Assembly (NCBI GenBank): GCA_021513695.1
Contig: CP084166.1
Location: 384,001 to 448,000 of the forward strand
Direction of reading: 5' to 3'
Origin: Candidatus Heimdallarchaeum aukensis
GTDB lineage: Archaea; Asgardarchaeota; Heimdallarchaeia; Heimdallarchaeales; Heimdallarchaeaceae
DNA length: 64,000 bases
The notes below the pieces were generated by a model. It saw only the letters and a program-made list of their open reading frames with translations, was not told the origin of the DNA and made no database searches. Positions 12,049 through 47,394 of this stretch are shown here, in pieces. The translations under genes and the position numbers were made by a program. The first letter of the stretch is position 1. Every line of letters starts with the position of its first letter.

Positions 12049-13362
12049 ATGCAAACTTTCTTTGACTCAGCTTTAGAAGCAGAATTTAATAAAATATACG
12101 AAAAATTGAAAAAACTTGAACGAAAAAACGATGACGAGTATCAAAGTGACTTGTCTTTCCTACTTGAACATTTTAGGATTTTTGAACCACTTGATACTAC
12201 TTGTCAAAGAGAAGACTTTAGCGTTTCTGCAATAGATGGGAGTGGAGCCAGCGATTTAATTAAATTGAATAATATTTCAGTACACCTTATCACTGCAGGC
12301 TTTTCTGCAGATCAAACAGATTTTAAAAAAGGAACCACAACAGAATTAGATATTAGACCTGAAATTAGTACATATCCCAACGGTGTAACTAAACTTGTTT
12401 TAATAAGAGAAGATGAAGAACTAGAAGTATGGGAAGAAATTACCAATTTTGTAAGAGAAAATTATGGTAAAGAACCAAAAGAAATAGTTTTTGATGTTCT
12501 TAGGACCATGATTTTAAGAAAAATGGAAAATGAAGGTAAAGATATTTCCAAAATACGAATAAAAAACACTTTCGAATTATTACATCAAGCTAAACTTGCA
12601 GGTTTTACTCTTTATAATAAACCATTAGAAAAATTTCATGAATGGATGATAAGTCCGAGACCACAGACTGGATGGTATGACCAGTTTAGAGAAATATTAG
12701 AATATTCTCTGGCATTTTCTATTTTGAAAACTAATAAAAAAATAAAATATTTATTCATTGATGGTTCAATGAACATGCTAATCTCAAAGAATCATAATCA
12801 ACCAAGATTAATTTCTAATTACCTTTTACGTGATTTATGTACAGAAGCTCTAAAGCGAGACACATGTGTAGTAGCTGTAAGTAAAACAACTACTTTTCCT
12901 TTTATTTACAAAATAGCTCAAGATGTTAGAAATCATCTTAAAGGAGAAAAAAAATGGTTTTTCCGTGTTCCTTCTAAGGAATTAGGAGAGACTCCTCTTC
13001 GTCTGTTAGAAGGAAAAAGTATTCCTCCAGAGAATGCTATTACTTATCTTTTCCATTTTTCTGCAGATTTACCTGTTTTAAGGATAGACTTCGATTTAGA
13101 TTGGTGGAAGAAGAATATTCATTCAGAAGATAAAGAAAAAGAGAAAGAGAGAGAAGTTGAGATGTTTAAAGAAATTGATTGGTTGTCTCGAGATGTAAGA
13201 TATCATGGTTATCTTTTTGATCTTGCTTTCTCTCATTTTAATGCTCTAATAACTTTCAAAGAGAGAGATTTAATTGCGGATAGATTAATTGATTTCTTTA
13301 CTGAAAAAGGTGAAGATCCAAGGAGATATATACACCCAAGAAAAAGATTAGGATTAATGTAA
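12049..13362 (+). CDS. nurA: NurA-like 5'-3' nuclease
   Basis: Conserved IDGS motif (SAIDGSGASD) near the N-terminus as in NurA. Sits directly upstream of herA-mre11-rad50. A TATA-like ttttaaata lies ~30 nt before the ATG, suggesting a leaderless first gene. Confidence 0.5.
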   Translation: MQTFFDSALEAEFNKIYEKLKKLERKNDDEYQSDLSFLLEHFRIFEPLDTTCQREDFSVSAIDGSGASDLIKLNNISVHLITAGFSADQTDFKKGTTTELDIRPEISTYPNGVTKLVLIREDEELEVWEEITNFVRENYGKEPKEIVFDVLRTMILRKMENEGKDISKIRIKNTFELLHQAKLAGFTLYNKPLEKFHEWMISPRPQTGWYDQFREILEYSLAFSILKTNKKIKYLFIDGSMNMLISKNHNQPRLISNYLLRDLCTEALKRDTCVVAVSKTTTFPFIYKIAQDVRNHLKGEKKWFFRVPSKELGETPLRLLEGKSIPPENAITYLFHFSADLPVLRIDFDLDWWKKNIHSEDKEKEKEREVEMFKEIDWLSRDVRYHGYLFDLAFSHFNALITFKERDLIADRLIDFFTEKGEDPRRYIHPRKRLGLM

Positions 13363-13374: not shown

Positions 13375-15255
13375 ATGGTAAAATTAGAATTAACAGAACC
13401 AATAGGAATATTAGCAGAAGGAGATATCTCATCGTTAAAAGTGATATCAAAGGATATTAGATATCAAGTTGGTGAAATATTAATTATCACCCATCCTGAA
13501 ACTCCGGAAATCTATTTGTTTCGGGTGATGAATTATGAAAATATTCTCCGATCAAGTTCTGATATGAGCTATGTTGCTTCAAATATTTTGAAAAACAGAA
13601 CAGCATATATTGCGAGGGTAGAAAATGAGAAAATGGTAAAAGTATCTGGAATCTTGATGGGTTACTCTCTTTATGATGAAAATAAGAAAAAGTGGATTCT
13701 ACATAAACCTCGCTCTCTCCCTCCTCATTTTTCATATGTTTATCGAGGGTCTGAGTGTAAAGCAGCCTTACAAGATCTCTTATGGTCAGAATTTGGTAAT
13801 GATATAGAAATAGGAAAATTACAAGTAGGTGCTACAACCTTAGATATCCCAATTAAACTAGATGTAGAAGCTCTTCCAATGCATGTACAAGTAGCAGGAA
13901 CAACAGGAGCAGGAAAATCTTTCTTCATGTTGACAATGATTACTTCAAGTCTTAAAAATAATGTAATTAACGCTTTAAAACCTTCAAAGGCAGATACTAT
14001 TAACAAGAAAATTTCTTTCTTCATGGTAGACGTACATGATGAATACATGAGAGGAATGAAAGAACCTGAAACAAATGCAAGATATGGTATAAAAGATATA
14101 GCTGAAGCAAGCTTAAAGCAAGATAAAGATATTTACAACCTTCTATTTGGAAAGAATTTCTATCTTACTTCTGATATGGAAAGTGTAGAAAAAGATATGC
14201 AAAAATATGCTAAAGCCTTACGTTTCAGACTTGAAGATATAGAGGTAAGTGATATCATTTCAGTAATGGAAGTCACAGATCAAATGGCTTCATTCATGTA
14301 TTGGATTAAATCTCATAATGAAAATTGGATTTCAACTATTTTAGAATTAGGAGAAGAAGATGATCAAGGAGGATTTTCTAAAGGGACAGTAAATGCAGTA
14401 AAAAGAAGGCTCAGGAGTATATACAACTCTCCTATTTTCAGAGAGTCGAGAACTATCACAACTTCTGATGAAAAAAATCAAGAACAATCAAGCGTTAGTT
14501 TTAGTGATTTAGCAGAAATAGTTTACAATTTAGAACAAGGACATTTCTATAATTTTAGTTCAGCACTATTAAGTTCGACAGAACAATTTATCGTTTTAAC
14601 TATGTTAGCAAGAACAATCTTTGCTTTAAGACAATCTTTAATGTCTTCTACAAGATGGTCTCAGTTTGAAAAACAAGTAGAGTCAAGATTACCAAGACAA
14701 ATAAGTAACGAATTGCTAGGAAAAACAAATTCTTCTTTTTCGATAAAGGATCTCTATATTAAAAATAAAGAAGGAAACGACTATATTCTTAAAAAAGTGA
14801 ATGAACTTCCTGTAATTCTTCTCACAATTGAAGAAGCTCCAAGTATTTTGGGAGTACAGATGTCTAAACAAGGAAATGTGTTCGTTGACATTAGTAGACA
14901 AGGAAGAAAGTTTGGAATAGGCATGTTACTTATTACTCAAAATATTTCAGCGATGGAACCTTTGATTTTAGCCAATACAAACACAGAAATAAACATGATG
15001 CTAGGAAATGAGATAGAGATAAAACAAGCAATCATCAACGCCAGTAACAACATTACAGGATACGAACATGAGTTTAGAGTATTAAACAGAGGTGAAGCTA
15101 TAGTTACTAACTCTTTACGCAATATTCCCATGCCTGTGAAGATACACAATGCACCAGTTTTAATTAAAGAAAATTTGTCTTTCTTTGAAAATCCTTATGA
15201 TAGTTTGAAAATAAAAAAAGAAAAAAGGATATCTAAAGATATTCCTCTTCTTTAA
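13375..15255 (+). CDS. herA: HerA-type hexameric ATPase/helicase
   Basis: N-terminal HAS-barrel-like region, Walker A VAGTTGAGKSFF, Walker B LLTIEEAP, and GRKFGIGMLLITQ. SD aggtga lies 6 nt before the ATG. Confidence 0.7.
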   Translation: MVKLELTEPIGILAEGDISSLKVISKDIRYQVGEILIITHPETPEIYLFRVMNYENILRSSSDMSYVASNILKNRTAYIARVENEKMVKVSGILMGYSLYDENKKKWILHKPRSLPPHFSYVYRGSECKAALQDLLWSEFGNDIEIGKLQVGATTLDIPIKLDVEALPMHVQVAGTTGAGKSFFMLTMITSSLKNNVINALKPSKADTINKKISFFMVDVHDEYMRGMKEPETNARYGIKDIAEASLKQDKDIYNLLFGKNFYLTSDMESVEKDMQKYAKALRFRLEDIEVSDIISVMEVTDQMASFMYWIKSHNENWISTILELGEEDDQGGFSKGTVNAVKRRLRSIYNSPIFRESRTITTSDEKNQEQSSVSFSDLAEIVYNLEQGHFYNFSSALLSSTEQFIVLTMLARTIFALRQSLMSSTRWSQFEKQVESRLPRQISNELLGKTNSSFSIKDLYIKNKEGNDYILKKVNELPVILLTIEEAPSILGVQMSKQGNVFVDISRQGRKFGIGMLLITQNISAMEPLILANTNTEINMMLGNEIEIKQAIINASNNITGYEHEFRVLNRGEAIVTNSLRNIPMPVKIHNAPVLIKENLSFFENPYDSLKIKKEKRISKDIPLL

Positions 15256-15288
15256 TAATAGAATCAAAAATAATTTGAATGAAAGAAG

Positions 15289-16570
15289 GTGAAATTAGTG
15301 GTAAAAATAGCTCATATGTCTGATACTCATTTATCACATAGAAGAGTAAGAAATGTTAGAGATAGTTGGAAAGAAAGATATAGAGTAAGTTGGATAGAGA
15401 ATGACTTTTCATTAGCTTTTCAAAGAGCTTTAGATGCAGCTATTGAAACTAAATGTGATTTTCTAGTTCATTCAGGAGATTTGTTTGATGTTCCTGTAAA
15501 AAGAAATACAACTTCACCTTCTGAATATGCAAGAGCTATTGCAATAAGTGAAATAAGAAGATTTTTGGAAGCTACACATTTTAAAGTACCTATAATTATA
15601 ATTGATGGAAATCATGGAACTTATCTTTACAGGAATAATAGTACTATAGAATTCATAAAATCAGCTTTCCCTGAAAATGTGTTTATAGCCACAAATTATG
15701 ACCTTAAACGAGCAATAGTAAAAAATGAACCTTTGAAAGTAGAGTTTGAAGAGATTAACTTTTATCTGTTTCCTTATTTAGAATTCAAATCTATGGCTAA
15801 TTATGAAGAACTCTATGATGAATGGATAAGTAAATGCCAAGAGCCTGAAGACGGAAAAATTAATGTTGCAGTAGCTCACGGAATGTTTAGGAATTTGGAT
15901 TTGCATGAAAAATTATTCTCTTTTCCTTATGATTATGTAGCTTTAGGACACGATCACCAACAAAGAAAATATGCTCCAAACGCTTGGCAAGCAGGAAGTA
16001 CAGAAAAATATACCTTTGCTGAAAGAGGACAAGAAAAGTATTTTAGAAGTTATTATTGAGAAAGGAAAAAATTTACACATTAATCCAATAAAGGTTGTTA
16101 GCCAAAGAGAAATGAAACAATTCGAAGTAGAATTAAGTTCAGACATGAGTGCATTAACTGTAGAAGAAAAAATAAGAGAACTTGTAGCAAGTTATAGAAA
16201 GAACTTTGATGGAAACACAGCTGCGAGAATAAAAGTTAAGTTACAAGGAAAAACTTCTCTCTCCTACTGGTGGACAATAGAAGATCGTTTAGTAGAAATA
16301 CAGAAAAATGTTCTAACTGAAGAATATAACATCCTAGAATTTAGATGGGATGAAGAAGAGTTAAAGAAATCTATACCTCAAAGCCTAGCCAAAACACCAC
16401 AAATGGATCAATACCTAATTGAAGATCCAGTCAGGGATTTTGTAAATTATTTGAAAAACTTAGAAATAGATGATGAAGTAAAATTTGAACAATATGCAAA
16501 ACTAGGACCAGAAATAATTAAAGAGGTTTTTAGTGAAGGATTTATTTCTTCAAAGGAGGAGTTAGAATGA
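15289..16570 (+). pseudogene. mre11: Mre11 nuclease, copy 1, frameshifted
   Basis: Same sequence as the intact 427-aa copy, but caagaaaaaggtatttt is caagaaaagtatttt here (-2 bp). This splits the gene into the 15289-16059 and 15971-16570 ORFs. Phosphoesterase motifs HMSDTHL, GDLFD and GNHG are in the first part and GHDHQ is in the second. Confidence 0.65.
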
Positions 16571-18699
16571 AAATTCTTTGGATACACATGGAGAATTTTA
16601 AATGCTACCGCAATGAGAGGATTCCAGAAACAGGTATCCTTCCAAAAGGATTGATTTTTGTAGAGGGAGAGAATTCGGTAGGAAAAACTTCTTTGTTTGA
16701 TGCAATATATTACGCTCTTTTTTACGAACCTACAAAGGACAAAGCCATTTTAGGTACAAAAGATATGCTAGTAAAAAGAGGAGAAAAAGAGACTATCGTA
16801 GAAGTTGCTTTTGAAATAATGAATAAATACTTTGTAGTACAAAAGCAACATGGAATATCAACTCCTCTAAAAGTAGTTTTACTTCAAATTGATAGAGAGA
16901 TGGCTGAAAAAGGAGAATTAAAAAATCCCATTAAAATAGCAGAAGGACTAGAGGATGTAAACAAGAAATTGTTTGAACTATTAAATATCACAAGCGAAAG
17001 CGTGTTGAGCACTCTAATAGTAAATCAAGGAGAAGTGCAAAAACTAGCAGAAGCTAAAGGAGCAGAACTTAGAGATATAATTTACAAACTTTTTCATTTA
17101 GATGATATAAGAGAAAAGTTGAAACGTGTGATTAATAGAAAAATGGAGATTTTAGATGAAGAATGGGAAAAATACAAAATTGAGCGCACAACAGAGAATA
17201 TTCTTGAAGAAATTAAAGAAATAGAGATAGAGAAAGAAACGAAAGAGAAAGAGTTAGTAAAAGCAAAAAATGAACTGGAAAAAATAGAAGAGAAAATCTC
17301 TCAATATCCTAAACATGAAGATATTCAATCAATAAGCAATATTTTAACTCAAATACAGCAAACCAAAGAAACTATTTCTAAGCAAGAAAGAATAATTAAA
17401 CAAAAATCTGAAACTTTAGAAATCAAGGAACTAACACAAGAAGAAATAAAGGATAAAATCTTAGAAATAGAGAAGATTATTCAGAAAACTAACAATAACA
17501 TAGAAAATTTAAGAAACAAAAGAGATAAAGTCCAGAAAAAGTTGCATAGTCTCCAAAGAGATCTTGCTGAAATAAAAGAAAAAATCAAGAAACTAGAAAG
17601 TCATGAAGTAGGACATGAAGAAGATTTTACTTGCGAATTATGCGAACAAACGATGCCCTACTCGAAATTTAAGGAATTAGTAGAGAGTAAAAAACAATCA
17701 ATTACAAATATTGAATTAGGGATTAAGAAAAGAACTGCAGAAAAAAGAGAAGTAGAGAAACAAATTGAAAAAGAAAGCAATTATATTAATAAGCTAAAAG
17801 AACAAATTTTTTCACTTAATAATGTCAAAGATAGGCTAGATAATCTAGAGAATAACAAGAAAGAATTGGATAAAAAACAAAATAATTTAATAACACAACT
17901 TAAAAAATTCAAAGTCCAGACAGTTGATCAGCTTTCAAAGAAATATAATGTCGAAAACTTTGAGGAATTCTTTTCAATTATAAGTCAACTGAAATCTGAT
18001 AAAGCTAGTCTAAATGCATCAATAAGTCATCTAAATAAAACTATTGAAAAACTAAAACAAAGGAAAAATCAATTAGAAAAAGAAATAGACAAAAATAAGG
18101 AAAAGGAAGAGAAACAAGAGAGTATTCTTCAAGAACAAGCTGCACTAAAAGATGTAGAAGGTGTAGTTTCAAGTTTTATAGCTGAGGAGCTAATCTCCAA
18201 TAGATTGCTTGCAGGAATACAGCAGACAACTAATCCTAATATAAACTTGTTTACGAGAGGAAAATACTCAGAGATATATCTAGAAGCAACTACAAAGAAA
18301 ACTTTAAGGTTAAGCGTTTTAGACAAAGAAGAAGAATTCGTAAAAAATCAAGAGTTCCTTTCAGGAGGAGATAAAGCAGCTATAGGACTAGGATTGAGAT
18401 TAGGTATAAGCGAATTACTAAAACAAATTAGACCATTCAAAGATTCTCCTCATAATCCTCCAAGGATGGATATAATGATACTTGATGAGCCTTTGGGTTC
18501 ACTTGATAGTGAAAGAAGGAAAAAAGTTCTAGAAGGATTGTTGATACAGAAGAAATTCAGTCAAATATTTCTGATTACACATACAAATGTTAGAGAAGAA
18601 CTTCGAGCTCCTTCAATTCGAGTAAGTAGAACAGAAAAAGGTAGCTCTACAGCCTATTACCCTGCTCCAAGTAAAATAGAGTTAGAATCTGAAGAATGA
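16567..18699 (+). CDS. rad50: Rad50 ABC-type ATPase, copy 1
   Basis: Walker A GENSVGKTS, central coiled coil with CxxC zinc hook (FTCELCEQ), signature LSGGDKAA and Walker B MILDEP. SD ggagg lies 8 nt upstream. Start overlaps the mre11 stop. Confidence 0.8.
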   Translation: MKILWIHMENFKCYRNERIPETGILPKGLIFVEGENSVGKTSLFDAIYYALFYEPTKDKAILGTKDMLVKRGEKETIVEVAFEIMNKYFVVQKQHGISTPLKVVLLQIDREMAEKGELKNPIKIAEGLEDVNKKLFELLNITSESVLSTLIVNQGEVQKLAEAKGAELRDIIYKLFHLDDIREKLKRVINRKMEILDEEWEKYKIERTTENILEEIKEIEIEKETKEKELVKAKNELEKIEEKISQYPKHEDIQSISNILTQIQQTKETISKQERIIKQKSETLEIKELTQEEIKDKILEIEKIIQKTNNNIENLRNKRDKVQKKLHSLQRDLAEIKEKIKKLESHEVGHEEDFTCELCEQTMPYSKFKELVESKKQSITNIELGIKKRTAEKREVEKQIEKESNYINKLKEQIFSLNNVKDRLDNLENNKKELDKKQNNLITQLKKFKVQTVDQLSKKYNVENFEEFFSIISQLKSDKASLNASISHLNKTIEKLKQRKNQLEKEIDKNKEKEEKQESILQEQAALKDVEGVVSSFIAEELISNRLLAGIQQTTNPNINLFTRGKYSEIYLEATTKKTLRLSVLDKEEEFVKNQEFLSGGDKAAIGLGLRLGISELLKQIRPFKDSPHNPPRMDIMILDEPLGSLDSERRKKVLEGLLIQKKFSQIFLITHTNVREELRAPSIRVSRTEKGSSTAYYPAPSKIELESEE

Positions 18700-18775
18700 T
18701 TCTTTTTTCATTATCTTTATCTTTTTTGAGAATAATATTTATATCTAAAAATGGAAATGTTCTCTAGGGTTTGAA

Positions 18776-20146
18776 ATGATACCTGGAACACTTAGACCTT
18801 TACCAAAAAGATTAGCTAAAGTAAAAACAGAAGCTGAAAGGCTTTTTAGAGCAGTGGACTATGATTACGAGACTATTAAAGAAATACTAAAATCTAGTAA
18901 AAATTTTGAATTTGAAGAAATAAGAAGACAATATATTAATTGTATAAATCATCACATAAGAATAGTTCCACTCGTAAAAGAAGCAGATAAATTGTTAGTT
19001 AAATATTCAAGAGATCCACTTCTAAAAGAAATGGTTTTCAAACTATTTGATAAGTTGGAAAAATATGAATACAGATTGAATGGTGATATTCAACGACTTG
19101 ATACTATTTTAATGTCGAAAAGAAAAGAATACATCAATAAAACAATTCCACTAGTGAAATCAGAAATAAGAAGCAAGTTATCTTTCTTAAGAGACCTAGA
19201 TTTTGAGCAATTACTCGCTGACAGTGAAAAATATTCTGCTATTATTTCAGGCATCGTAGATCGTGTAAATATATTAAAAGACGAGTATCAAAAATTAATC
19301 GAAAATGCTCTTGAAAGCGCAGTAGAAGCTTATAAAGAGTTAAAAGAAAAACTAGACGAACTTGAAGATGAACTAAAAGAGTATGTTCTTATTCTTGCTA
19401 CTTGTAAGATGGAATTGCTAATTAACGATTCAAAAACTTTGCTTGAAGAAGGAGTTAAAATATTCGAACGTTTTGAATTAGAACAAACAACTGAACTCAT
19501 AGAAGAAGCACAAGAGTACCTAGAAAAAGCAAAACCAACTCTAAAAGAGATGAATGAATTAAAGGTAGATATTCCTAAAAAAGCAATGAAAAAGAGCTTT
19601 GAAACAAAATTCCGAGAATTAAGAAATAAATTCGAAGAAAATAAATTTACTCTAGATGAATTGATAAACAACATCGAAACTAGAAATAGGTTACTATCGA
19701 CAAATATTGAAAGAATTGATGCATTAAAAGAGCTAGCAAAATCAATGTCGAGTGACATCAAAGAAACAGGAGAAATATTAAAAATAAAAAGAATGGGTAC
19801 ATTTAAACTATACTTGAAAGAAAATCTTATTCCACACATGGAGTTGCAAGAAAATGGTATAGTAAAAATACCAAAGGCAGAAGAACTCACGGCAACTTTT
19901 ATAGATGAAATAATCTTGACTCTTGAAGATGTAGATAATAAAAATATAGTTAAGGACTGGTTCAATGCTTTTAGAGCAACAAAAGTAGGTAAGTGGATAT
20001 ATGAAACTTCAATCAAAATTAAAAATAAAATAGTAGACATAACAAAGAAGATTGTAAAAAAAACTAAAAAATGGATCCAAGAAATGAAAGAAAAAAGAGA
20101 ACAGAAAAAATCGCAAGAAAATCAACAAAAAGAAGAGAAGAAATAG
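18776..20146 (+). CDS. coiled-coil protein of unknown function, copy 1
   Basis: 456 aa, highly alpha-helical and E/K-rich. Co-duplicated with mre11-rad50. Confidence 0.55.
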   Translation: MIPGTLRPLPKRLAKVKTEAERLFRAVDYDYETIKEILKSSKNFEFEEIRRQYINCINHHIRIVPLVKEADKLLVKYSRDPLLKEMVFKLFDKLEKYEYRLNGDIQRLDTILMSKRKEYINKTIPLVKSEIRSKLSFLRDLDFEQLLADSEKYSAIISGIVDRVNILKDEYQKLIENALESAVEAYKELKEKLDELEDELKEYVLILATCKMELLINDSKTLLEEGVKIFERFELEQTTELIEEAQEYLEKAKPTLKEMNELKVDIPKKAMKKSFETKFRELRNKFEENKFTLDELINNIETRNRLLSTNIERIDALKELAKSMSSDIKETGEILKIKRMGTFKLYLKENLIPHMELQENGIVKIPKAEELTATFIDEIILTLEDVDNKNIVKDWFNAFRATKVGKWIYETSIKIKNKIVDITKKIVKKTKKWIQEMKEKREQKKSQENQQKEEKK

Positions 20147-20311
20147 CAACATTATGTGATTTTGTGTTTTTGTGTAAAAATTCTCTATTTTTTTGTTAAA
20201 TTTATTACTATATAATAATGAATACAAAAAGAAATTAGGTTGAAATTATATCATTCATTGAATTTTTGAAAAAATTTTTGCCAAAAAAAATAAATATTTA
20301 GTTATATATAT

Positions 20312-20542
20312 GTGGTATGTATTAAAATGACTTCAGATTCATCTTGTTATTGTATTGTAAGAATAACTTGGCCTAAATGGATAGTTGCAACTGGACAGAT
20401 AGCTTTAGGTATTGGAATACTCTTATTGATCATTTTTTCGATCTTTTACACAAAGACAAGTTGGGAAAATTTTTCGCTATACGGAATCTACGTGGGAGCA
20501 GGTTTTTTGCTACTTGGGGCACTAATTAGCTATAGTTACTAA
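20312..20542 (+). CDS. small two-TM membrane protein, copy 1 with chimeric 3' end created by the duplication junction
   Basis: Identical to 25743-25979 up to ...LLGALI, then reads into the junction (SYSY*) instead of LSSNDW*. Confidence 0.4.
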   Translation: MVCIKMTSDSSCYCIVRITWPKWIVATGQIALGIGILLLIIFSIFYTKTSWENFSLYGIYVGAGFLLLGALISYSY

Positions 20543-20687
20543 CTCTTTACGCAATATTCCCATGCCTGTGAAGATACACAATGCACCAGTTTTAATTAAA
20601 GAAAATTTGTCTTTCTTTGAAAATCCTTATGATAGTTTGAAAATAAAAAAAGAAAAAAGGATATCTAAAGATATTCCTCTTCTTTAA
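20528..20687 (+). pseudogene. duplicated 3' fragment of herA (last ~53 codons)
   Basis: Exact copy of 15096-15255 (…TNSLRNIPMPVKIHNAPVLIKENLSFFENPYDSLKIKKEKRISKDIPLL*) with no 5' part. Confidence 0.6.
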
Positions 20688-20720
20688 TAATAGAATCAAA
20701 AATAATTTGAATGAAAGAAG

Positions 20721-22004
20721 GTGAAATTAGTGGTAAAAATAGCTCATATGTCTGATACTCATTTATCACATAGAAGAGTAAGAAATGTTAGAGATAGTTG
20801 GAAAGAAAGATATAGAGTAAGTTGGATAGAGAATGACTTTTCATTAGCTTTTCAAAGAGCTTTAGATGCAGCTATTGAAACTAAATGTGATTTTCTAGTT
20901 CATTCAGGAGATTTGTTTGATGTTCCTGTAAAAAGAAATACAACTTCACCTTCTGAATATGCAAGAGCTATTGCAATAAGTGAAATAAGAAGATTTTTGG
21001 AAGCTACACATTTTAAAGTACCTATAATTATAATTGATGGAAATCATGGAACTTATCTTTACAGGAATAATAGTACTATAGAATTCATAAAATCAGCTTT
21101 CCCTGAAAATGTGTTTATAGCCACAAATTATGACCTTAAACGAGCAATAGTAAAAAATGAACCTTTGAAAGTAGAGTTTGAAGAGATTAACTTTTATCTG
21201 TTTCCTTATTTAGAATTCAAATCTATGGCTAATTATGAAGAACTCTATGATGAATGGATAAGTAAATGCCAAGAGCCTGAAGACGGAAAAATTAATGTTG
21301 CAGTAGCTCACGGAATGTTTAGGAATTTGGATTTGCATGAAAAATTATTCTCTTTTCCTTATGATTATGTAGCTTTAGGACACGATCACCAACAAAGAAA
21401 ATATGCTCCAAACGCTTGGCAAGCAGGAAGTACAGAAAAATATACCTTTGCTGAAAGAGGACAAGAAAAAGGTATTTTAGAAGTTATTATTGAGAAAGGA
21501 AAAAATTTACACATTAATCCAATAAAGGTTGTTAGCCAAAGAGAAATGAAACAATTCGAAGTAGAATTAAGTTCAGACATGAGTGCATTAACTGTAGAAG
21601 AAAAAATAAGAGAACTTGTAGCAAGTTATAGAAAGAACTTTGATGGAAACACAGCTGCGAGAATAAAAGTTAAGTTACAAGGAAAAACTTCTCTCTCCTA
21701 CTGGTGGACAATAGAAGATCGTTTAGTAGAAATACAGAAAAATGTTCTAACTGAAGAATATAACATCCTAGAATTTAGATGGGATGAAGAAGAGTTAAAG
21801 AAATCTATACCTCAAAGCCTAGCCAAAACACCACAAATGGATCAATACCTAATTGAAGATCCAGTCAGGGATTTTGTAAATTATTTGAAAAACTTAGAAA
21901 TAGATGATGAAGTAAAATTTGAACAATATGCAAAACTAGGACCAGAAATAATTAAAGAGGTTTTTAGTGAAGGATTTATTTCTTCAAAGGAGGAGTTAGA
22001 ATGA
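20721..22004 (+). CDS. mre11: Mre11 nuclease (intact, 427 aa)
   Basis: Calcineurin-like phosphoesterase motifs I-V present (D-x-H, GDLFD, GNHG, VAVAHG and GHDHQ), followed by the Mre11 capping/C-terminal region. Confidence 0.85.
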   Translation: MKLVVKIAHMSDTHLSHRRVRNVRDSWKERYRVSWIENDFSLAFQRALDAAIETKCDFLVHSGDLFDVPVKRNTTSPSEYARAIAISEIRRFLEATHFKVPIIIIDGNHGTYLYRNNSTIEFIKSAFPENVFIATNYDLKRAIVKNEPLKVEFEEINFYLFPYLEFKSMANYEELYDEWISKCQEPEDGKINVAVAHGMFRNLDLHEKLFSFPYDYVALGHDHQQRKYAPNAWQAGSTEKYTFAERGQEKGILEVIIEKGKNLHINPIKVVSQREMKQFEVELSSDMSALTVEEKIRELVASYRKNFDGNTAARIKVKLQGKTSLSYWWTIEDRLVEIQKNVLTEEYNILEFRWDEEELKKSIPQSLAKTPQMDQYLIEDPVRDFVNYLKNLEIDDEVKFEQYAKLGPEIIKEVFSEGFISSKEELE

Positions 22005-24130
22005 AAATTCTTTGGATACACATGGAGAATTTTAAATGCTACCGCAATGAGAGGATTCCAGAAACAGGTATCCTTCCAAAAGGATTGATTTTTGTAGAGG
22101 GAGAGAATTCGGTAGGAAAAACTTCTTTGTTTGATGCAATATATTACGCTCTTTTTTACGAACCTACAAAGGACAAAGCCATTTTAGGTACAAAAGATAT
22201 GCTAGTAAAAAGAGGAGAAAAAGAGACTATCGTAGAAGTTGCTTTTGAAATAATGAATAAATACTTTGTAGTACAAAAGCAACATGGAATATCAACTCCT
22301 CTAAAAGTAGTTTTACTTCAAATTGATAGAGAGATGGCTGAAAAAGGAGAATTAAAAAATCCCATTAAAATAGCAGAAGGACTAGAGGATGTAAACAAGA
22401 AATTGTTTGAACTATTAAATATCACAAGCGAAAGCGTGTTGAGCACTCTAATAGTAAATCAAGGAGAAGTGCAAAAACTAGCAGAAGCTAAAGGAGCAGA
22501 ACTTAGAGATATAATTTACAAACTTTTTCATTTAGATATAAGAGAAAAGTTGAAACGTGTGATTAATAGAAAAATGGAGATTTTAGATGAAGAATGGGAA
22601 AAATACAAAATTGAGCGCACAACAGAGAATATTCTTGAAGAAATTAAAGAAATAGAGATAGAGAAAGAAACGAAAGAGAAAGAGTTAGTAAAAGCAAAAA
22701 ATGAACTGGAAAAAATAGAAGAGAAAATCTCTCAATATCCTAAACATGAAGATATTCAATCAATAAGCAATATTTTAACTCAAATACAGCAAACCAAAGA
22801 AACTATTTCTAAGCAAGAAAGAATAATTAAACAAAAATCTGAAACTTTAGAAATCAAGGAACTAACACAAGAAGAAATAAAGGATAAAATCTTAGAAATA
22901 GAGAAGATTATTCAGAAAACTAACAATAACATAGAAAATTTAAGAAACAAAAGAGATAAAGTCCAGAAAAAGTTGCATAGTCTCCAAAGAGATCTTGCTG
23001 AAATAAAAGAAAAAATCAAGAAACTAGAAAGTCATGAAGTAGGACATGAAGAAGATTTTACTTGCGAATTATGCGAACAAACGATGCCCTACTCGAAATT
23101 TAAGGAATTAGTAGAGAGTAAAAAACAATCAATTACAAATATTGAATTAGGGATTAAGAAAAGAACTGCAGAAAAAAGAGAAGTAGAGAAACAAATTGAA
23201 AAAGAAAGCAATTATATTAATAAGCTAAAAGAACAAATTTTTTCACTTAATAATGTCAAAGATAGGCTAGATAATCTAGAGAATAACAAGAAAGAATTGG
23301 ATAAAAAACAAAATAATTTAATAACACAACTTAAAAAATTCAAAGTCCAGACAGTTGATCAGCTTTCAAAGAAATATAATGTCGAAAACTTTGAGGAATT
23401 CTTTTCAATTATAAGTCAACTGAAATCTGATAAAGCTAGTCTAAATGCATCAATAAGTCATCTAAATAAAACTATTGAAAAACTAAAACAAAGGAAAAAT
23501 CAATTAGAAAAAGAAATAGACAAAAATAAGGAAAAGGAAGAGAAACAAGAGAGTATTCTTCAAGAACAAGCTGCACTAAAAGATGTAGAAGGTGTAGTTT
23601 CAAGTTTTATAGCTGAGGAGCTAATCTCCAATAGATTGCTTGCAGGAATACAGCAGACAACTAATCCTAATATAAACTTGTTTACGAGAGGAAAATACTC
23701 AGAGATATATCTAGAAGCAACTACAAAGAAAACTTTAAGGTTAAGCGTTTTAGACAAAGAAGAAGAATTCGTAAAAAATCAAGAGTTCCTTTCAGGAGGA
23801 GATAAAGCAGCTATAGGACTAGGATTGAGATTAGGTATAAGCGAATTACTAAAACAAATTAGACCATTCAAAGATTCTCCTCATAATCCTCCAAGGATGG
23901 ATATAATGATACTTGATGAGCCTTTGGGTTCACTTGATAGTGAAAGAAGGAAAAAAGTTCTAGAAGGATTGTTGATACAGAAGAAATTCAGTCAAATATT
24001 TCTGATTACACATACAAATGTTAGAGAAGAACTTCGAGCTCCTTCAATTCGAGTAAGTAGAACAGAAAAAGGTAGCTCTACAGCCTATTACCCTGCTCCA
24101 AGTAAAATAGAGTTAGAATCTGAAGAATGA
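22001..24130 (+). CDS. rad50: Rad50 ABC-type ATPase, copy 2
   Basis: Identical to copy 1 except for a one-Asp deletion (HLDIREK versus HLDDIREK). Confidence 0.8.
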   Translation: MKILWIHMENFKCYRNERIPETGILPKGLIFVEGENSVGKTSLFDAIYYALFYEPTKDKAILGTKDMLVKRGEKETIVEVAFEIMNKYFVVQKQHGISTPLKVVLLQIDREMAEKGELKNPIKIAEGLEDVNKKLFELLNITSESVLSTLIVNQGEVQKLAEAKGAELRDIIYKLFHLDIREKLKRVINRKMEILDEEWEKYKIERTTENILEEIKEIEIEKETKEKELVKAKNELEKIEEKISQYPKHEDIQSISNILTQIQQTKETISKQERIIKQKSETLEIKELTQEEIKDKILEIEKIIQKTNNNIENLRNKRDKVQKKLHSLQRDLAEIKEKIKKLESHEVGHEEDFTCELCEQTMPYSKFKELVESKKQSITNIELGIKKRTAEKREVEKQIEKESNYINKLKEQIFSLNNVKDRLDNLENNKKELDKKQNNLITQLKKFKVQTVDQLSKKYNVENFEEFFSIISQLKSDKASLNASISHLNKTIEKLKQRKNQLEKEIDKNKEKEEKQESILQEQAALKDVEGVVSSFIAEELISNRLLAGIQQTTNPNINLFTRGKYSEIYLEATTKKTLRLSVLDKEEEFVKNQEFLSGGDKAAIGLGLRLGISELLKQIRPFKDSPHNPPRMDIMILDEPLGSLDSERRKKVLEGLLIQKKFSQIFLITHTNVREELRAPSIRVSRTEKGSSTAYYPAPSKIELESEE

Positions 24131-24206
24131 TTCTTTTTTCATTATCTTTATCTTTTTTGAGAATAATATTTATATCTAAAAATGGAAATGTTCTCTAGGG
24201 TTTGAA

Positions 24207-25577
24207 ATGATACCTGGAACACTTAGACCTTTACCAAAAAGATTAGCTAAAGTAAAAACAGAAGCTGAAAGGCTTTTTAGAGCAGTGGACTATGATTACG
24301 AGACTATTAAAGAAATACTAAAATCTAGTAAAAATTTTGAATTTGAAGAAATAAGAAGACAATATATTAATTGTATAAATCATCACATAAGAATAGTTCC
24401 ACTCGTAAAAGAAGCAGATAAATTGTTAGTTAAATATTCAAGAGATCCACTTCTAAAAGAAATGGTTTTCAAACTATTTGATAAGTTGGAAAAATATGAA
24501 TACAGATTGAATGGTGATATTCAACGACTTGATACTATTTTAATGTCGAAAAGAAAAGAATACATCAATAAAACAATTCCACTAGTGAAATCAGAAATAA
24601 GAAGCAAGTTATCTTTCTTAAGAGACCTAGATTTTGAGCAATTACTCGCTGACAGTGAAAAATATTCTGCTATTATTTCAGGCATCGTAGATCGTGTAAA
24701 TATATTAAAAGACGAGTATCAAAAATTAATCGAAAATGCTCTTGAAAGCGCAGTAGAAGCTTATAAAGAGTTAAAAGAAAAACTAGACGAACTTGAAGAT
24801 GAACTAAAAGAGTATGTTCTTATTCTTGCTACTTGTAAGATGGAATTGCTAATTAACGATTCAAAAACTTTGCTTGAAGAAGGAGTTAAAATATTCGAAC
24901 GTTTTGAATTAGAACAAACAACTGAACTCATAGAAGAAGCACAAGAGTACCTAGAAAAAGCAAAACCAACTCTAAAAGAGATGAATGAATTAAAGGTAGA
25001 TATTCCTAAAAAAGCAATGAAAAAGAGCTTTGAAACAAAATTCCGAGAATTAAGAAATAAATTCGAAGAAAATAAATTTACTCTAGATGAATTGATAAAC
25101 AACATCGAAACTAGAAATAGGTTACTATCGACAAATATTGAAAGAATTGATGCATTAAAAGAGCTAGCAAAATCAATGTCGAGTGACATCAAAGAAACAG
25201 GAGAAATATTAAAAATAAAAAGAATGGGTACATTTAAACTATACTTGAAAGAAAATCTTATTCCACACATGGAGTTGCAAGAAAATGGTATAGTAAAAAT
25301 ACCAAAGGCAGAAGAACTCACGGCAACTTTTATAGATGAAATAATCTTGACTCTTGAAGATGTAGATAATAAAAATATAGTTAAGGACTGGTTCAATGCT
25401 TTTAGAGCAACAAAAGTAGGTAAGTGGATATATGAAACTTCAATCAAAATTAAAAATAAAATAGTAGACATAACAAAGAAGATTGTAAAAAAAACTAAAA
25501 AATGGATCCAAGAAATGAAAGAAAAAAGAGAACAGAAAAAATCGCAAGAAAATCAACAAAAAGAAGAGAAGAAATAG
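24207..25577 (+). CDS. coiled-coil protein of unknown function, copy 2
   Basis: Identical to 18776-20146. Confidence 0.55.
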   Translation: MIPGTLRPLPKRLAKVKTEAERLFRAVDYDYETIKEILKSSKNFEFEEIRRQYINCINHHIRIVPLVKEADKLLVKYSRDPLLKEMVFKLFDKLEKYEYRLNGDIQRLDTILMSKRKEYINKTIPLVKSEIRSKLSFLRDLDFEQLLADSEKYSAIISGIVDRVNILKDEYQKLIENALESAVEAYKELKEKLDELEDELKEYVLILATCKMELLINDSKTLLEEGVKIFERFELEQTTELIEEAQEYLEKAKPTLKEMNELKVDIPKKAMKKSFETKFRELRNKFEENKFTLDELINNIETRNRLLSTNIERIDALKELAKSMSSDIKETGEILKIKRMGTFKLYLKENLIPHMELQENGIVKIPKAEELTATFIDEIILTLEDVDNKNIVKDWFNAFRATKVGKWIYETSIKIKNKIVDITKKIVKKTKKWIQEMKEKREQKKSQENQQKEEKK

Positions 25578-25742
25578 CAACATTATGTGATTTTGTGTTT
25601 TTGTGTAAAAATTCTCTATTTTTTTGTTAAATTTATTACTATATAATAATGAATACAAAAAGAAATTAGGTTGAAATTATATCATTCATTGAATTTTTGA
25701 AAAAATTTTTGCCAAAAAAAATAAATATTTAGTTATATATAT

Positions 25743-25979
25743 GTGGTATGTATTAAAATGACTTCAGATTCATCTTGTTATTGTATTGTAAGAATAACTT
25801 GGCCTAAATGGATAGTTGCAACTGGACAGATAGCTTTAGGTATTGGAATACTCTTATTGATCATTTTTTCGATCTTTTACACAAAGACAAGTTGGGAAAA
25901 TTTTTCGCTATACGGAATCTACGTGGGAGCAGGTTTTTTGCTACTTGGGGCACTAATTCTATCAAGTAATGACTGGTAG
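25743..25979 (+). CDS. small two-TM membrane protein (native copy)
   Basis: 78 aa with two hydrophobic helices. Its 3' end lies beyond the duplication boundary. Confidence 0.45.
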   Translation: MVCIKMTSDSSCYCIVRITWPKWIVATGQIALGIGILLLIIFSIFYTKTSWENFSLYGIYVGAGFLLLGALILSSNDW

Positions 25980-26014: not shown

Positions 26015-28051
26015 TTAGAAAAATGCAAACGTGATAAACAAAGGAAGAAGAGTGATTGAAAGTATATTTTGGAGTTTGATTAAAATATGTAGAGAAGGTC
26101 CGGCAGTATCTTTTAGAGGATCACCTACTGTGTCTCCTATTACTGCCGCATCATGCGTTTCTGTTCCTTTACCTCCAAAATGTCCAAGTTCTATGTATTT
26201 CTTAGCGTTATCCCATGCTCCACCAGCGTTAAACATAAACATCGCTAATATTCCAGAAACCACCTTAACTGCAACAAGATAAGCTGCTAGGTACCATACA
26301 CCAACAAGGAAACCCATTATTATTGGTGCCAAAATAGCTATGAAAGTGGGTACAATCATTTCTTTTAAAGCATTTGTTGTGCTTATTCCCACACATCGAG
26401 AATAATCTGCATTGGATTCTCCCTTCAAAATACCAGGGTTTTCTCTAAATTGTCTTCTTACTTCATCAGCCATTTTGAAAGAAGCTCTTCCAACAGCTTT
26501 GATGATTAATGCAGAGAAAAGAAAAGGCATCGTTGCTCCAATGAATATAGCAGCAATACCAATGGGACTTGCAATGTTAACAACAAGATTAGATAAATCA
26601 GAAGCATCCATTCCGAGTAAATCAGCTGCTTGTGTAAGAAAAGCAAACAAGATAACTACAGAAGTTAATATACAAGTGGACATGGCATAACCTTTGGTTA
26701 TTGCTTTAGTTACGTTTCCCACACCATCTAATTCTTCTAAAGCAGAGCCTACTTCATCATTTATACCAGACATTGTAGCTATTCCTTCTGCATTATCTGC
26801 AATTGGCCCAAAAGTATCTGAACTCATTATTATTCCTGTAGAAGCGAGAACACCCATAGTAGCAGCAGCTACTCCGAAAACTCCAAGCATTCCTCCTCCC
26901 ATAATGAAATATGAAGCTACAGAGACTCCAGCAACAACAATTAAGGGAATAACAGGACTTTCAAGACCATAAGCTAAACCTATTATTATGTTTAAAGCTG
27001 GCCCACTCTGAGAACTTTTAGCAATTTCTTTTGTTACTCTCCCTCCAGTAATTGTGTAATAATTTACAAGCATAGAAACTACAAGAGTAAGCACTAAACC
27101 TAAGCCTAAAGTATAAAATAATCGAATATCCTTCATTAACCAGAAAGCAATAGCAAAAAATCCAGCCAATGAAATGAGACCAGAGACCAAAAATGACATG
27201 TAAACATTAGTACTTGTTTTACTTTTTGTTGCACGAACAAAGAAGACTCCTACGATTGAGCTTATTATTCCCACAGATTCAATTAAAAGAGGAAATATAA
27301 GCGCATTGTAGCCATAAACAGGAATAAAAACTAAACCAAGTATCATTGTTGCGATAATATTGTCTGAAAATGATTCAAAGAGATCAGCTCCTCTGCCTGC
27401 GCAATCTCCTACATTATCTCCTACTTGGTCTGCTATAGCTGCTGGATTTCTAGGGTCATCTTCAGGAATCTTGTTTTCGACTTTACCAACGAGATCAGCT
27501 CCAACATCTGCTGCTTTTGTATATATTCCTCCTCCAATCTGAGCAAATAAAGCGGCCAAACTCGCTCCAAAACCATATCCTACAAGAACAGTAGGATCTT
27601 CGCCGAATATCATAAACAAAATACCAATTCCCAGTAAACTTAAACCAACGATTGAAATACCTGTAACAGCTCCTCCTCTAAAAGCTACAACTACAGCTTT
27701 TCGACTATCAGTTCGAGCTTTATTTGCGGTACGAACATTAGCTCTAACAGCAATGCTCATTCCAATATACGCTGCAACAAGAGAAGAAATTGAACCAATA
27801 ACAAAGCTTAAAGCCACTTCCCACTGTAAAACTAACCACAACAGTATAGCAAGCAGTACTATAAACACTCCTATAGTAATGAATTCTCTCTTAAGAAAGG
27901 CTTTGGCCCCTTCGCGTATGAAACCTGCAATTTCTTTCATTCTATCTGTTCCTTCATCTTCTTTCATTACTAGATAAATCAAAAGGAAGACTACTAAAAT
28001 AGCAACAGAGCCAACTATTATACTTATGTACGCCAAATCCACCGTTTTCAC
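26015..28051 (-). CDS. hppA: membrane-bound H+/Na+-translocating pyrophosphatase
   Basis: V-PPase motifs DNVGDCAGRGADLFES and GDTVGDPLKDTAGPSLHILIKL, with about 15 TM helices. Confidence 0.9.
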   Translation of the reverse strand: MKTVDLAYISIIVGSVAILVVFLLIYLVMKEDEGTDRMKEIAGFIREGAKAFLKREFITIGVFIVLLAILLWLVLQWEVALSFVIGSISSLVAAYIGMSIAVRANVRTANKARTDSRKAVVVAFRGGAVTGISIVGLSLLGIGILFMIFGEDPTVLVGYGFGASLAALFAQIGGGIYTKAADVGADLVGKVENKIPEDDPRNPAAIADQVGDNVGDCAGRGADLFESFSDNIIATMILGLVFIPVYGYNALIFPLLIESVGIISSIVGVFFVRATKSKTSTNVYMSFLVSGLISLAGFFAIAFWLMKDIRLFYTLGLGLVLTLVVSMLVNYYTITGGRVTKEIAKSSQSGPALNIIIGLAYGLESPVIPLIVVAGVSVASYFIMGGGMLGVFGVAAATMGVLASTGIIMSSDTFGPIADNAEGIATMSGINDEVGSALEELDGVGNVTKAITKGYAMSTCILTSVVILFAFLTQAADLLGMDASDLSNLVVNIASPIGIAAIFIGATMPFLFSALIIKAVGRASFKMADEVRRQFRENPGILKGESNADYSRCVGISTTNALKEMIVPTFIAILAPIIMGFLVGVWYLAAYLVAVKVVSGILAMFMFNAGGAWDNAKKYIELGHFGGKGTETHDAAVIGDTVGDPLKDTAGPSLHILIKLQNILSITLLPLFITFAFF

Positions 28052-31051: not shown

Positions 31052-31483
31052 TTGAGAAAAATGGCTACACTTGAAGCAATGAAAATAATTCCTGACAGAA
31101 CTGTTGAAGAGTTAGAAAAAATTGATGTTGAAATTGGTAAGATTTTAACTAAAATACTTAATGAAGATGGAAATAATTTAGATTTTATAGAAAAACAAAT
31201 TTATGCTATTCTTCTAATCTCAAAAGCTGGATTACCAATGTATTCAAACGTAAATGCTGATTTTAAAGTAAATGAACTTTTGCTGTCAGGATTGCTAGGG
31301 GCTTTACAAATAGTAGGAAATTCAATTTTCAGAGACGATACAGTTATATGTTCGATAAATTATAAAGGTTTCACGATTTTATTTGAAGAAATGTCGTTTG
31401 GAAGTTTGGTTTTAATTGTTTCAGAAAATAATCAATTAACAAGAAAAATAATTAAGATAATTAAAGAAACTTTAACTGAATAA
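31052..31483 (+). CDS. Roadblock/LC7 (MglB-like) domain protein (tentative)
   Basis: About 140 aa. The segment AILLISKAGLPMYSNV...LLGALQIVG...GSLVLIVSE matches the alpha-beta-beta-alpha-beta pattern of Roadblock/LC7 domains. Assignment is by pattern only. Confidence 0.35.
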   Translation: MRKMATLEAMKIIPDRTVEELEKIDVEIGKILTKILNEDGNNLDFIEKQIYAILLISKAGLPMYSNVNADFKVNELLLSGLLGALQIVGNSIFRDDTVICSINYKGFTILFEEMSFGSLVLIVSENNQLTRKIIKIIKETLTE

Positions 31484-31487
31484 TGTC

Positions 31488-31580
31488 TGCTTCGATAATT
31501 CAATTAATCTGATAACATTATTGGGGTTATTTCTTACAAGGATAACATCTGCACTTTCTATTGCAACATCAGTTCCTGCC
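31488..31580 (+). pseudogene. about 93-bp remnant of a copB-like P-type ATPase 3' region
   Basis: About 93% identical to 32492-32583 inside copB (first 31 bp identical). Lies opposite in strand to copB and directly after the stop of the 31052-31483 gene. Confidence 0.5.
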
Positions 31581-34464: not shown

Positions 34465-34655
34465 TAAAGAGTTTTTATTATTTTTAAGATATTAAAGCTA
34501 TTGGTTAAACAATTTTTGAAATAATAATATCTTTCTCTTTAAGTGATATTGTTTTTCTACTCTAATTTGAGTAAAATCTCCTATTTTAGTTGTAATTCTT
34601 TCATTATTTTTTTAAGTCAAGAGATAAACCAATTTAAAAATTTAAATAATGTTAG

Positions 34656-40445: not shown

Positions 40446-40620
40446 TTAAAAGCGACTAGTAAGTGTAAAAAATGCCTAGATTTCAATATTTAAACTTGTA
40501 TATTTAACAAGAAATAAAGAATCAGAATAAAAGTTAATGTTTAGTTGCTGAAATAAGAGCGTTGATTCTTTGTTAAAAACAAAAGATTGAACAAAATTTA
40601 TAATAGTTAATCAAATTAAA

Positions 40621-41511: not shown

Positions 41512-41722
41512 AAATTTTTGATGTTCTTCTTTTTGGAATTAAAGATATTTTAGATAAAATTAAAGAAATAAATGTACAGGAAATGATTTCTTTCTAATTC
41601 TTTATGTTTTTAGAATTTATGATTGATGCAGTGCTGATCATTGAAAAGCATTTTCTGTAAAGAATAAGAGAAAATAAGGAAAAAAACAAAAATATTTAAT
41701 TTTCAATAAAAAAGTAAAAAAA

Positions 41723-42121: not shown

Positions 42122-42229
42122 AATAACCTGTCTATGAAAACAGAATTATCTATACTTAAAAGCACTATTATGTTACAAAAATAAATAACTATAGAAAAAG
42201 GATTTAAGTTCAAAAAACTATTTTTTATT

Positions 42230-42706: not shown

Positions 42707-42890
42707 ATTCAAAGAATCTCTATCAGTTAATTCATTTCTAGAAATAGTAAAATAGAAAATCCCATTTAGTAGCTTCAAATAGAAGTTCTTAAGCTAAAAA
42801 TATTGATTAATTATAGATTATTTGAAAAATGGATATTCTTTTTGCATTGTACTGATAAATAAAAAAAAGAGAAAATTGTTTTCTACAAGC

Positions 42891-47300: not shown

Positions 47301-47394
47301 TGATTTTAATCAAAAATCTTTAGAAAATAAGACCATTCAAAACTTAATTTTGTATTATATTGAAAAAAAAAGGATTTTAGTTTAACCACTAAAA

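Follow-up and report, generated by a model that had tools for sequence, protein, structure and literature searches.

A tandem mre11–rad50 duplication in the deposited Candidatus Heimdallarchaeum aukensis chromosome is probably a mis-assembly

The mre11–rad50 locus

The window, that is, the whole 64,000-nt stretch of contig CP084166.1 analysed here, carries a co-directional cluster of DNA-end-resection genes in which mre11, rad50 and a gene for a 456-aa protein (hereafter X) are present twice. The genes are as follows.

12049..13362, + strand: nurA-like nuclease gene (437 aa); opens the operon, not part of the duplication
13375..15255, + strand: herA, 626 aa; final 160 nt within unit 1; PF01935 DUF87/HerA, FtsK_SpoIIIE
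15289..16570, + strand: mre11 copy 1; split by a 2-nt deletion into ORFs 15289-16059 and 15971-16570
16567..18699, + strand: rad50 copy 1, 710 aa; same allele in Logan and JGI assemblies
18776..20146, + strand: 456-aa all-alpha protein, copy 1 (K9W45_01560)
20327..20542, + strand: chimeric 71-aa ORF over the junction (UJG41164.1, K9W45_01565); in the NCBI record only
20528..20687, + strand: herA 3′ fragment, the last 52 codons and stop codon; opens unit 2
20721..22004, + strand: mre11 copy 2, intact; 427-aa ORF, called as 424 aa (UJG41165.1); metallophosphoesterase motifs
22001..24130, + strand: rad50 copy 2 (UJG41166.1), 709 aa; Walker A at aa 34, CxxC hook at aa 355; allele in the NCBI record only
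24207..25577, + strand: 456-aa all-alpha protein, copy 2 (K9W45_01580)
25758..25979, + strand: native 73-aa membrane ORF (K9W45_01585); kept in Ca. H. endolithica; straddles the right duplication boundary
26015..28051, − strand: H+-pyrophosphatase gene, right flank; PF03030, E 1e-233

Profile matches agreed at family level with the herA, mre11 and rad50 assignments made in a preliminary description of this DNA. The central domain of HerA matched PF01935 at E 4e-12, over the cut-off, and its NCBIfam HerA matches were weak and below cut-off. Mre11 matched PF00149 at E 1e-10, contains the DTH, GDLFD and GNH motifs, and reached E 1e-9 to 1e-11 against the Mre11/SbcD NCBIfam models, under their equivalog cut-offs. 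Rad50 matched AAA_23 and the SbcC Walker B region, has a CxxC zinc hook, and reached E 1e-28 to 1e-34 with NCBIfam models, again under the cut-offs. The NurA nuclease (RNase H-like fold) is encoded beside herA by the upstream 437-aa gene; the 456-aa gene was considered for this role and ruled out, being all-alpha and without a fold match. The two accessory genes of the preliminary description proved to be this Heimdallarchaeia-specific all-alpha 456-aa protein and the conserved 73-aa membrane ORF. The GenBank entries UJG41160-UJG41168 of Ca. H. aukensis (3,081,793-bp contig) include the 456-aa protein, the junction ORF, the two Rad50 variants and the Mre11 fragment; the last is the 253-aa UJG41160.1, annotated from the N-terminal piece of mre11 copy 1.

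Two units identical except for two indels

Self-BLAST and exact extension placed the duplicated units, the novel junction between them and the two positions at which they differ as listed below.

15096..20527, + strand: duplicated unit 1, 5432 nt; herA 3′ end, frameshifted mre11, rad50 (710 aa), 456-aa gene, truncated small ORF
20528..25958, + strand: duplicated unit 2, 5431 nt; herA 3′ fragment, intact mre11, rad50 (709 aa), 456-aa gene, most of the small ORF
20520..20535 (20527/20528), unstranded: novel junction, CACTAATT/AGCTATAG; no microhomology
16034..16038, + strand: private deletion of unit 1, AAAAG; AAAAAGG in unit 2 (21466-21472), the Logan contig and three JGI contigs
22535..22537, + strand: private deletion of unit 2, GAT; GATGAT in unit 1 (17101-17106), the Logan contig and three JGI contigs

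The comparison revealed 0 mismatches and exactly two indels between the units. Unit 1 begins 160 nt upstream of the herA stop and unit 2 ends 21 nt upstream of the stop of the small ORF 25758-25979, such that both breakpoints interrupt genes on the ORF map of the window. The preliminary description had reported the same tandem units, identical apart from two indels, starting within the end of herA, finishing inside a small membrane-protein gene and creating a herA 3′ fragment and a chimeric small ORF; in the deposited sequence each of these elements was recovered, with exact boundaries and with the two by-products at 20528-20687 and 20327-20542. A perfect 5.4-kb repeat cannot be due to chance. 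Exact comparison of the boundaries found 0 nt of microhomology, the bases that flank the breakpoints being different, and self-BLAST and annotation of the window showed the breakpoints to be free of repeats, tRNA genes and mobile-element genes, with no repeat family reaching the unit boundaries. Breakpoint repeats or microhomology are common, not obligatory, in genuine duplications.

The first indel sets GAAAAGT in unit 1 (A4 at 16034-16037, G at 16038) against GAAAAAGGT in unit 2 (A5 at 21466-21470, GG at 21471-21472). It frameshifts the unit 1 mre11, an effect missing from the preliminary description; the product departs at aa 251 and reaches a stop 6 codons later. A 2-bp loss in an A-run had been described near position 16039; the 2-nt loss is there, but it removes one A and one G and is not a pure A-run slip. 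The second indel, GATGAT in unit 1 against GAT in unit 2, lies at 17101-17106 and 22535-22537, as had been noted around 17105, and is an in-frame loss of one Asp codon (Asp180) from the unit 2 rad50. Both AAAAAGG and GATGAT occur in the Logan contig described below and in JGI contigs L002 and L003 (about 98.6% identical). Because these contigs carry the longer alleles, both indels are derived deletions, one private to each unit. The resemblance to long-read errors that had been remarked on is supported, each difference being a deletion relative to Illumina-derived sequence and to three environmental contigs. The adjacent copies are thus identical save for error-type changes.

These data bear on the reading that mre11–rad50–X was truly duplicated in tandem, clonally and very recently, and that short-read assemblers collapse the two copies; each copy would since have gained one indel, and the herA-adjacent mre11 would be turning into a pseudogene. 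Loss of one redundant mre11 copy would be a plausible fate, and the rad50 change stays in frame. Against it, two indels with no substitution between the copies in 10.9 kb form an error-like rather than a mutation-like spectrum, the ancestral allele stands at both sites in Logan, and the derived alleles occur in no read-derived assembly.

A read-derived control

Each Logan contig is a path without branches in a simplified k = 31 de Bruijn graph (PMC12424806). Aligned to the window, three such contigs from SRR15988954 showed 0 mismatches across 3375-31517, 32493-50377 and 50431-56094 (~51.7 kb), the two indels being the only differences over the matched spans. The paper on the Ca. H. aukensis genome reports a single DNA sample, FW4588 (PMC8813620), and we infer from this single sample with the organism, together with the 100% identity over ~51.7 kb, that SRR15988954 is the Illumina library of the assembled sample and presumably belongs to BioProject PRJNA721962; no mention of SRR15988954 or of the JGI sample ids was found in the literature. 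The PCR primers that were published for the genome do not occur in the window.

With the duplication collapsed, the window holds just four exact repeats of at least 31 nt, and every observed Logan contig end sits at one of them (31517, 32493, 50377/50431 and 56094). A 115.9-kb Logan contig runs unbranched across the equivalents of 15096 and 20527/25958, without either indel, and breaks at one shared 31-mer 5.6 kb beyond the unit. The contigs therefore break at all other exact repeats of at least 31 nt and give no read-derived support for the junction, of which GGGGCACTAATTAGCTATAGTTACTAACTCT is an example of a specific 31-mer. As a 45-mer, the junction was found neither in the same-strain Logan contigs nor in the JGI metagenome contigs nor in any fetched locus; the JGI strains without it keep both half-sequences unchanged.

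The presence of a single copy in Logan is by itself uninformative, because Logan collapses repeats by construction, and the argument rests on the missing branch. A clonal junction would add a path at flank coverage and break the contig at both boundaries. That two identical copies are invisible to k-mer assemblies speaks for a clonal duplication; flank-level junction k-mers and branches at both boundaries would still be expected from it, and the same-strain contig is unbranched there. The missing branch at 15096 and 20527/25958 in the read-derived graph indicates that the junction is absent from, or rare in, the SRR15988954 reads.

Simplification of the Minia or SPAdes style drops a connecting path only if the neighbouring paths have several-fold higher coverage, and a junction in less than roughly a quarter of genomes would be erased from the Logan graph. 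This leaves room for a minority of the cells or molecules of the enrichment to carry a true tandem duplication, or the unit as an excised circle; a few junction-bearing long reads would then have led the scaffolder to write the minority structure, the indels still being errors. An unbranched contig fits such a low-frequency junction, prokaryotic populations commonly contain spontaneous tandem duplications at low frequency, and the exact head-to-tail junction needs some source. On the other side, the breakpoints offer no repeat or microhomology to drive unequal recombination, and the junction is in no independent assembly.

Cluster look-ups of the proteins gave the same separation: the 71-aa junction ORF, the 253-aa Mre11 fragment and the 709-aa Rad50 occur in NCBI/UniRef only, whereas the native 73-aa ORF, the 424-aa Mre11, the 710-aa Rad50 and the 456-aa X protein are also in Logan, and most of them in JGI. 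A gene-position index returned no exact-protein entry for the junction ORF or the 709-aa Rad50; this negative weighs little, because the same index also failed on the 456-aa protein, which is known to be in it.

Copy number in relatives

Related genomes had been proposed as a check for single-copy mre11–rad50, and every relative examined has one copy of nurA–herA–mre11–rad50–X. The loci L001, L009, L010, L004 (PR6), L006 and L007 each have the genes once, in the same order. Among the single-copy cases are Ca. H. endolithica PR6, assembled from long reads with Canu, and three further Heimdall MAGs, besides JGI contigs L009 and L010, and in a 98.8%-identical environmental strain one contig covers the entire locus in single copy. 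A broader census of relatives among metagenome contigs added one 2.3-kb contig only. Single copies in close relatives and in independent assemblies, including that environmental strain, argue further against a clonal duplication.

Origin of the duplication

The chromosome was built from metaSPAdes Illumina contigs that LRScaf joined in two rounds on the basis of MDA-amplified Nanopore reads; it was then polished with Pilon and was published as complete, circularised and polished at 346x; the Nanopore DNA was MDA-amplified and then PCR-amplified (PMC8813620). On the present evidence we consider it probable that the mre11–rad50 tandem duplication is a mis-assembly in the deposited Ca. H. aukensis chromosome and not a feature of the dominant genome. 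The preliminary description had left the choice between a recent amplification and an assembly artefact. The unbranched Logan contig without the indels, the duplication-specific proteins confined to the deposited record and the single-copy relatives favour the artefact, and the same evidence disfavours the clonal amplification.

We propose that the true locus would be a single nurA–herA–mre11–rad50–X(456 aa)–small ORF operon with the H+-PPase gene after it, and that the hybrid assembly may have put one 5.43-kb stretch down twice, end to end. The doubling could have come from an untrimmed overlap of two sequence pieces or from a chimeric long read. LRScaf was rejected as the direct cause, since its paper has overlapping contigs merged and gaps filled with Ns (PMC6902338). 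The indels would be leftover deletion-type sequence errors, one in each copy, both of which short-read polishing would have left in place, presumably because any read with the true allele has a perfect match in the other copy. Two points count against an artefact: two deletion-type errors are hard to account for in an Illumina-first, Pilon-polished sequence, and the genome was published as complete with 346x polishing.

That the structure sits in a published, circularised genome at this polishing depth also favours the clonal duplication, which we nevertheless regard as very improbable in view of the unbranched contig, the alleles and the relatives. The minority variant is unlikely, if less so. 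Amplification by MDA and PCR generates chimeric molecules, and DNA amplified in both ways before Nanopore sequencing is a simpler source of a spurious junction; even if the variant were true, the deposited sequence would misrepresent the dominant genome.

Consequences

Very few genomes have been circularised in the Asgard clade that is nearest to eukaryotes; that of Ca. H. aukensis is one of them and serves as a reference. If the duplication is false, the mre11 pseudogene fragment UJG41160.1, the 709-aa Rad50 UJG41166.1 and the chimeric 71-aa UJG41164.1 would be artefact entries, and three genes would each have gained a spurious second copy, doubling gene counts in public databases. Such entries could mislead studies of copy number or pseudogenisation of Asgard DNA-repair genes. 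A cheap test for suspect perfect repeats is to look for branching of a read-derived de Bruijn contig at the two edges of the repeat. Apart from this check and the flag on a reference-genome error, a mis-assembly has no biological significance. If the junction were real in a subpopulation of the ethane/sulfate enrichment, it would represent a fresh homology-independent amplification, or an excised circle, of mre11–rad50–X, and thus a snapshot of DNA-repair gene amplification in an Asgard archaeon.

Comparison with known systems

The genes themselves resemble the archaeal HerA–NurA–Mre11–Rad50 end-resection operon, with a NurA-fold nuclease, a HerA-type ATPase, an Mre11 phosphoesterase and a Rad50 with Walker A and CxxC hook in one co-directional cluster; solved structures returned for NurA and HerA were S. 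solfataricus NurA (2ygk) and Thermococcus HerA–NurA (9x1l). The cluster is set apart from the known operon by its gene order (nurA–herA–mre11–rad50), by scores far under the NCBIfam equivalog cut-offs for all four proteins, and by a fifth conserved gene after rad50, encoding the all-alpha 456-aa protein that occurs only in Heimdallarchaeia and has no known fold relative.

As in spontaneous tandem amplification in prokaryotes, a few kb are doubled head to tail into identical copies with one novel junction. Real amplifications give junction reads and doubled depth, and often have breakpoint repeats or microhomology. In Ca. H. aukensis, by contrast, the read-derived graph lacks the junction, and the breakpoints share no microhomology.

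The closer likeness is to false duplications in assemblies. The cases described by Ko et al. 2022 (PMC9516828) and by Kelley and Salzberg 2010 (PMC2864568) differ in that they are diploid eukaryote assemblies, doubled by heterozygous haplotypes or sequencing errors, whereas the Ca. H. aukensis genome is a haploid archaeal genome from a metagenome, for which an untrimmed overlap or a chimeric MDA/Nanopore read in scaffolding would be the likely cause. Shared with those cases are adjacent near-identical copies with an arbitrary junction, an independent read-derived assembly that gives no support, copies that differ by error-type indels only, and the annotation of false extra genes and a false pseudogene.

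A perfect tandem repeat at the mre11–rad50 locus

Repeat scanning and self-BLAST of the window revealed one long direct repeat, 15096–20527 (unit 1) against 20528–25958 (unit 2), with 99.9% identity, 0 mismatches and 2 gaps, and exact extension of one unit against the other delimited three perfectly matching blocks and two indels. At indel 1, unit 1 reads GAAAAGT (16034–16038) versus GAAAAAGGT in unit 2 (21466–21472), one A and one G being lost; at indel 2, unit 2 reads GAT (22535–22537) versus GATGAT in unit 1 (17101–17106). The junction was blunt, CACTAATT running directly into AGCTATAG, and exact extension showed no microhomology at the breakpoints, because the bases flanking them differ. 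The unit starts 160 nt upstream of the herA stop codon and breaks off 21 nt short of that of a small membrane-protein ORF; it comprises the herA tail, mre11, rad50, a gene for a 456-aa protein (X) and the greater part of the small ORF.

Features of the mre11–rad50 locus (window coordinates)
13375–15255, HerA (PF01935; Pfam and NCBIfam searches)
18776–20146 and 24207–25577, plus strand, X, 456-aa protein, two copies
20327–20542, chimeric 71-aa ORF produced by the unit boundaries
20528–20687, herA 3′ fragment produced by the unit boundary
20721–22004, Mre11-type phosphoesterase (Pfam, NCBIfam)
22001–24130, Rad50-type ATPase (Pfam, NCBIfam), Walker A at residue 34, CxxC hook at residue 355
25758–25979, native 73-aa small membrane ORF
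26015–28051, minus strand, H+-pyrophosphatase of the right flank (Pfam, NCBIfam)

Indel 1 shifts the mre11 frame in unit 1, with divergence at residue 251 and a stop 6 codons on, and indel 2 leaves Rad50 of unit 2 without Asp180. Self-BLAST, exact extension and the ORF coordinates thus bore out the preliminary description of a tandem duplication with two indels, a herA 3′ fragment and a chimeric ORF.

X was confidently modelled as all-alpha (pLDDT 84.5), with a tail rich in lysine and glutamate; neither fold nor sequence comparison gave a significant relative, and the occurrence of X was limited to Heimdallarchaeia. In all Heimdall loci examined (L004 of Ca. H. endolithica PR6, the MAGs L006 and L007, and the JGI metagenome contig L009) it directly follows rad50; a role as a fifth, uncharacterised partner in the HerA–NurA–Mre11–Rad50 operon is possible. 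The native locus order is nurA–herA–mre11–rad50–X–small ORF.

The locus is single copy in related genomes

The preliminary description had called for a check of mre11–rad50 copy number in relatives, and we found the same gene order in single copy in PR6 (long reads, Canu), in three more distant Heimdall MAGs and in JGI contigs spanning one or both boundaries. The 45-mer across the junction was not found in JGI metagenome contigs, a search sensitive enough given that both of its halves are unchanged in the JGI strains. The 71-aa junction ORF, a 253-aa Mre11 fragment and a 709-aa Rad50, which exist solely through the duplication, occurred in NCBI/UniRef only; native products were also present in Logan, and most of them in JGI too.

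Two JGI contigs from different samples, L002 and L003, both terminate some 100 nt short of the unit's right boundary (window-equivalent 25847 and 25862), in the small membrane ORF. This shared end point may be a coincidence or a spot prone to short-read graph breaks in this lineage; if such graphs tend to break there, these ends could bear on a mis-join origin.

The read-derived assembly is unbranched at the unit boundaries

Through exact-protein look-ups we found Logan contigs of SRA run SRR15988954, from the same strain and presumably the genome's own sample, which are assembled directly from reads. Three of them matched the window with zero mismatches over 3375–31517, 32493–50377 and 50431–56094, the two indels being all that separates the sequences over about 51.7 kb. 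Each Logan contig represents a non-branching path through a k=31 de Bruijn graph that Minia3 has simplified, with each 31-mer retained once by construction (PMC12424806). A single Logan copy is therefore uninformative in itself, and graph branching is what counts.

With unit 2 removed, the window contains only four exact repeats of at least 31 nt (31488/32492, 50374/60490, 50418/60446 and 56065/58301), and all observed contig ends (31517, 32493, 50377, 50431 and 56094) coincide with them, indicating that the graph breaks even at one shared 31-mer. A clonal tandem duplication would carry its junction path at flank-level coverage and hence create branch points at both boundaries. A 115.9-kb Logan contig nevertheless runs unbroken across the equivalents of 15096 and 20527/25958, which means that the junction is absent from the SRR15988954 reads, or else so rare that simplification discarded it as a low-coverage connection. 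The limit at which Minia-type simplification removes connections lies several-fold below neighbouring coverage. A real duplication, or an excised circle, confined to a minority of genomes would have its rare junction erased in this way; we consider this unlikely, and if it were true the deposited consensus would still misrepresent the dominant genome.

Other repeats and ORFs of the window

A 98-nt direct repeat (95%; 31483–31580 and 32487–32584, about 1 kb apart) has its second copy within the 3′ portion of a P-type ATPase gene (32251–34464, minus strand), and its single shared exact 31-mer is the end point of two Logan contigs. At 31052–31483 (plus strand), a 143-aa ORF weakly matches the first longin domain of FUZ/MON1/HPS1 (PF19036, E 8e-4, below cut-off) and may, on this match, encode a eukaryotic-signature-type protein. 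A 113-nt inverted repeat (97% complementary; 50347–50459 and 60435–60547), whose left arm is the end point of two Logan contigs, surrounds about 10 kb containing an HTH regulator, an ABC transporter and beta-helix paralogues. The latter form an old tandem duplication (54997–59182, plus strand; about 75% nucleotide identity, 2.24-kb period, upstream regions included) of a beta-helix/NosD/TSP3-repeat protein of 684 and 661 aa; unlike the perfect 5.4-kb repeat, they are genuine diverged paralogues. Finally, a 1929-aa ORF (34656–40445, minus strand) is a tandem fusion of two complete UvrA units, with UvrA_inter and UvrA_DNA-bind each matched twice and four ABC signatures (repeat family D6). At 39780 in this gene, contig L015 of Logan run SRR15988958 (same organism) has T6 versus T5 in the window and SRR15988954, a difference due either to low-coverage error or to polymorphism.

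Each unit carries one private deletion

The Logan contig, with mre11 intact and a 710-aa Rad50, and L002 and L003, from environmental strains about 98.6% identical, all carry AAAAAGG and GATGAT; Ca. H. endolithica has a 426-aa Mre11 and a 710-aa Rad50. By this comparison, AAAAAGG and GATGAT are the ancestral state at both sites, which leaves one private deletion per unit. The spectrum across 10.9 kb, two deletions with not one substitution, is error-like, not mutation-like. Nanopore-type errors typically include under-calling of adjacent homopolymers and the dropping of a short tandem unit. The preliminary description had offered either a very recent amplification of the end-resection nuclease module or an assembly artefact. 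Amplification is not supported; a real clonal duplication, contradicted both by the unbranched Logan graph and by the allele pattern at the two indels, is highly improbable.

Proposed origin of the probably false duplication

X, both Rad50 variants, the Mre11 fragment, the junction ORF and the native small ORF correspond to GenBank UJG41160 to UJG41168 (locus tags K9W45_01560–01585), carried on the 3,081,793-bp contig of Candidatus Heimdallarchaeum aukensis. According to the available text of Wu et al. 2022 (PMC8813620), this genome came from one DNA sample, FW4588; metaSPAdes contigs of Illumina PE150 reads were scaffolded by LRScaf in two iterations with Nanopore reads from MDA-amplified DNA (additionally PCR-amplified for the high-yield run), and Pilon polishing was performed at 346x. 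That text treats non-tandem repeats and CRISPR or intragenic tandem repeats, and the 5.4-kb duplication is not described in it. The authors trimmed identical sequence from both ends of the final scaffold, so redundant overlapping ends existed in the scaffolder output. If such an overlap at an internal join had escaped trimming, a blunt, perfect tandem duplication of exactly this kind would result; the LRScaf paper states that overlapping contigs are merged and gaps given Ns. Another possible source of the false junction is a chimeric MDA/PCR Nanopore molecule. With two copies present, an error in one would escape short-read polishing, because reads of the true allele would find a perfect match in the other copy. 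The sole two discrepancies from the read-derived sequence both lie inside the duplicated segment, one per copy, which fits such shielding.

Together, these results suggest that the 5.4-kb repeat is most probably a false duplication, in consequence of which the mre11 pseudogene is false as well and several protein entries are spurious; the value of the result lies in flagging an error in a public reference genome.
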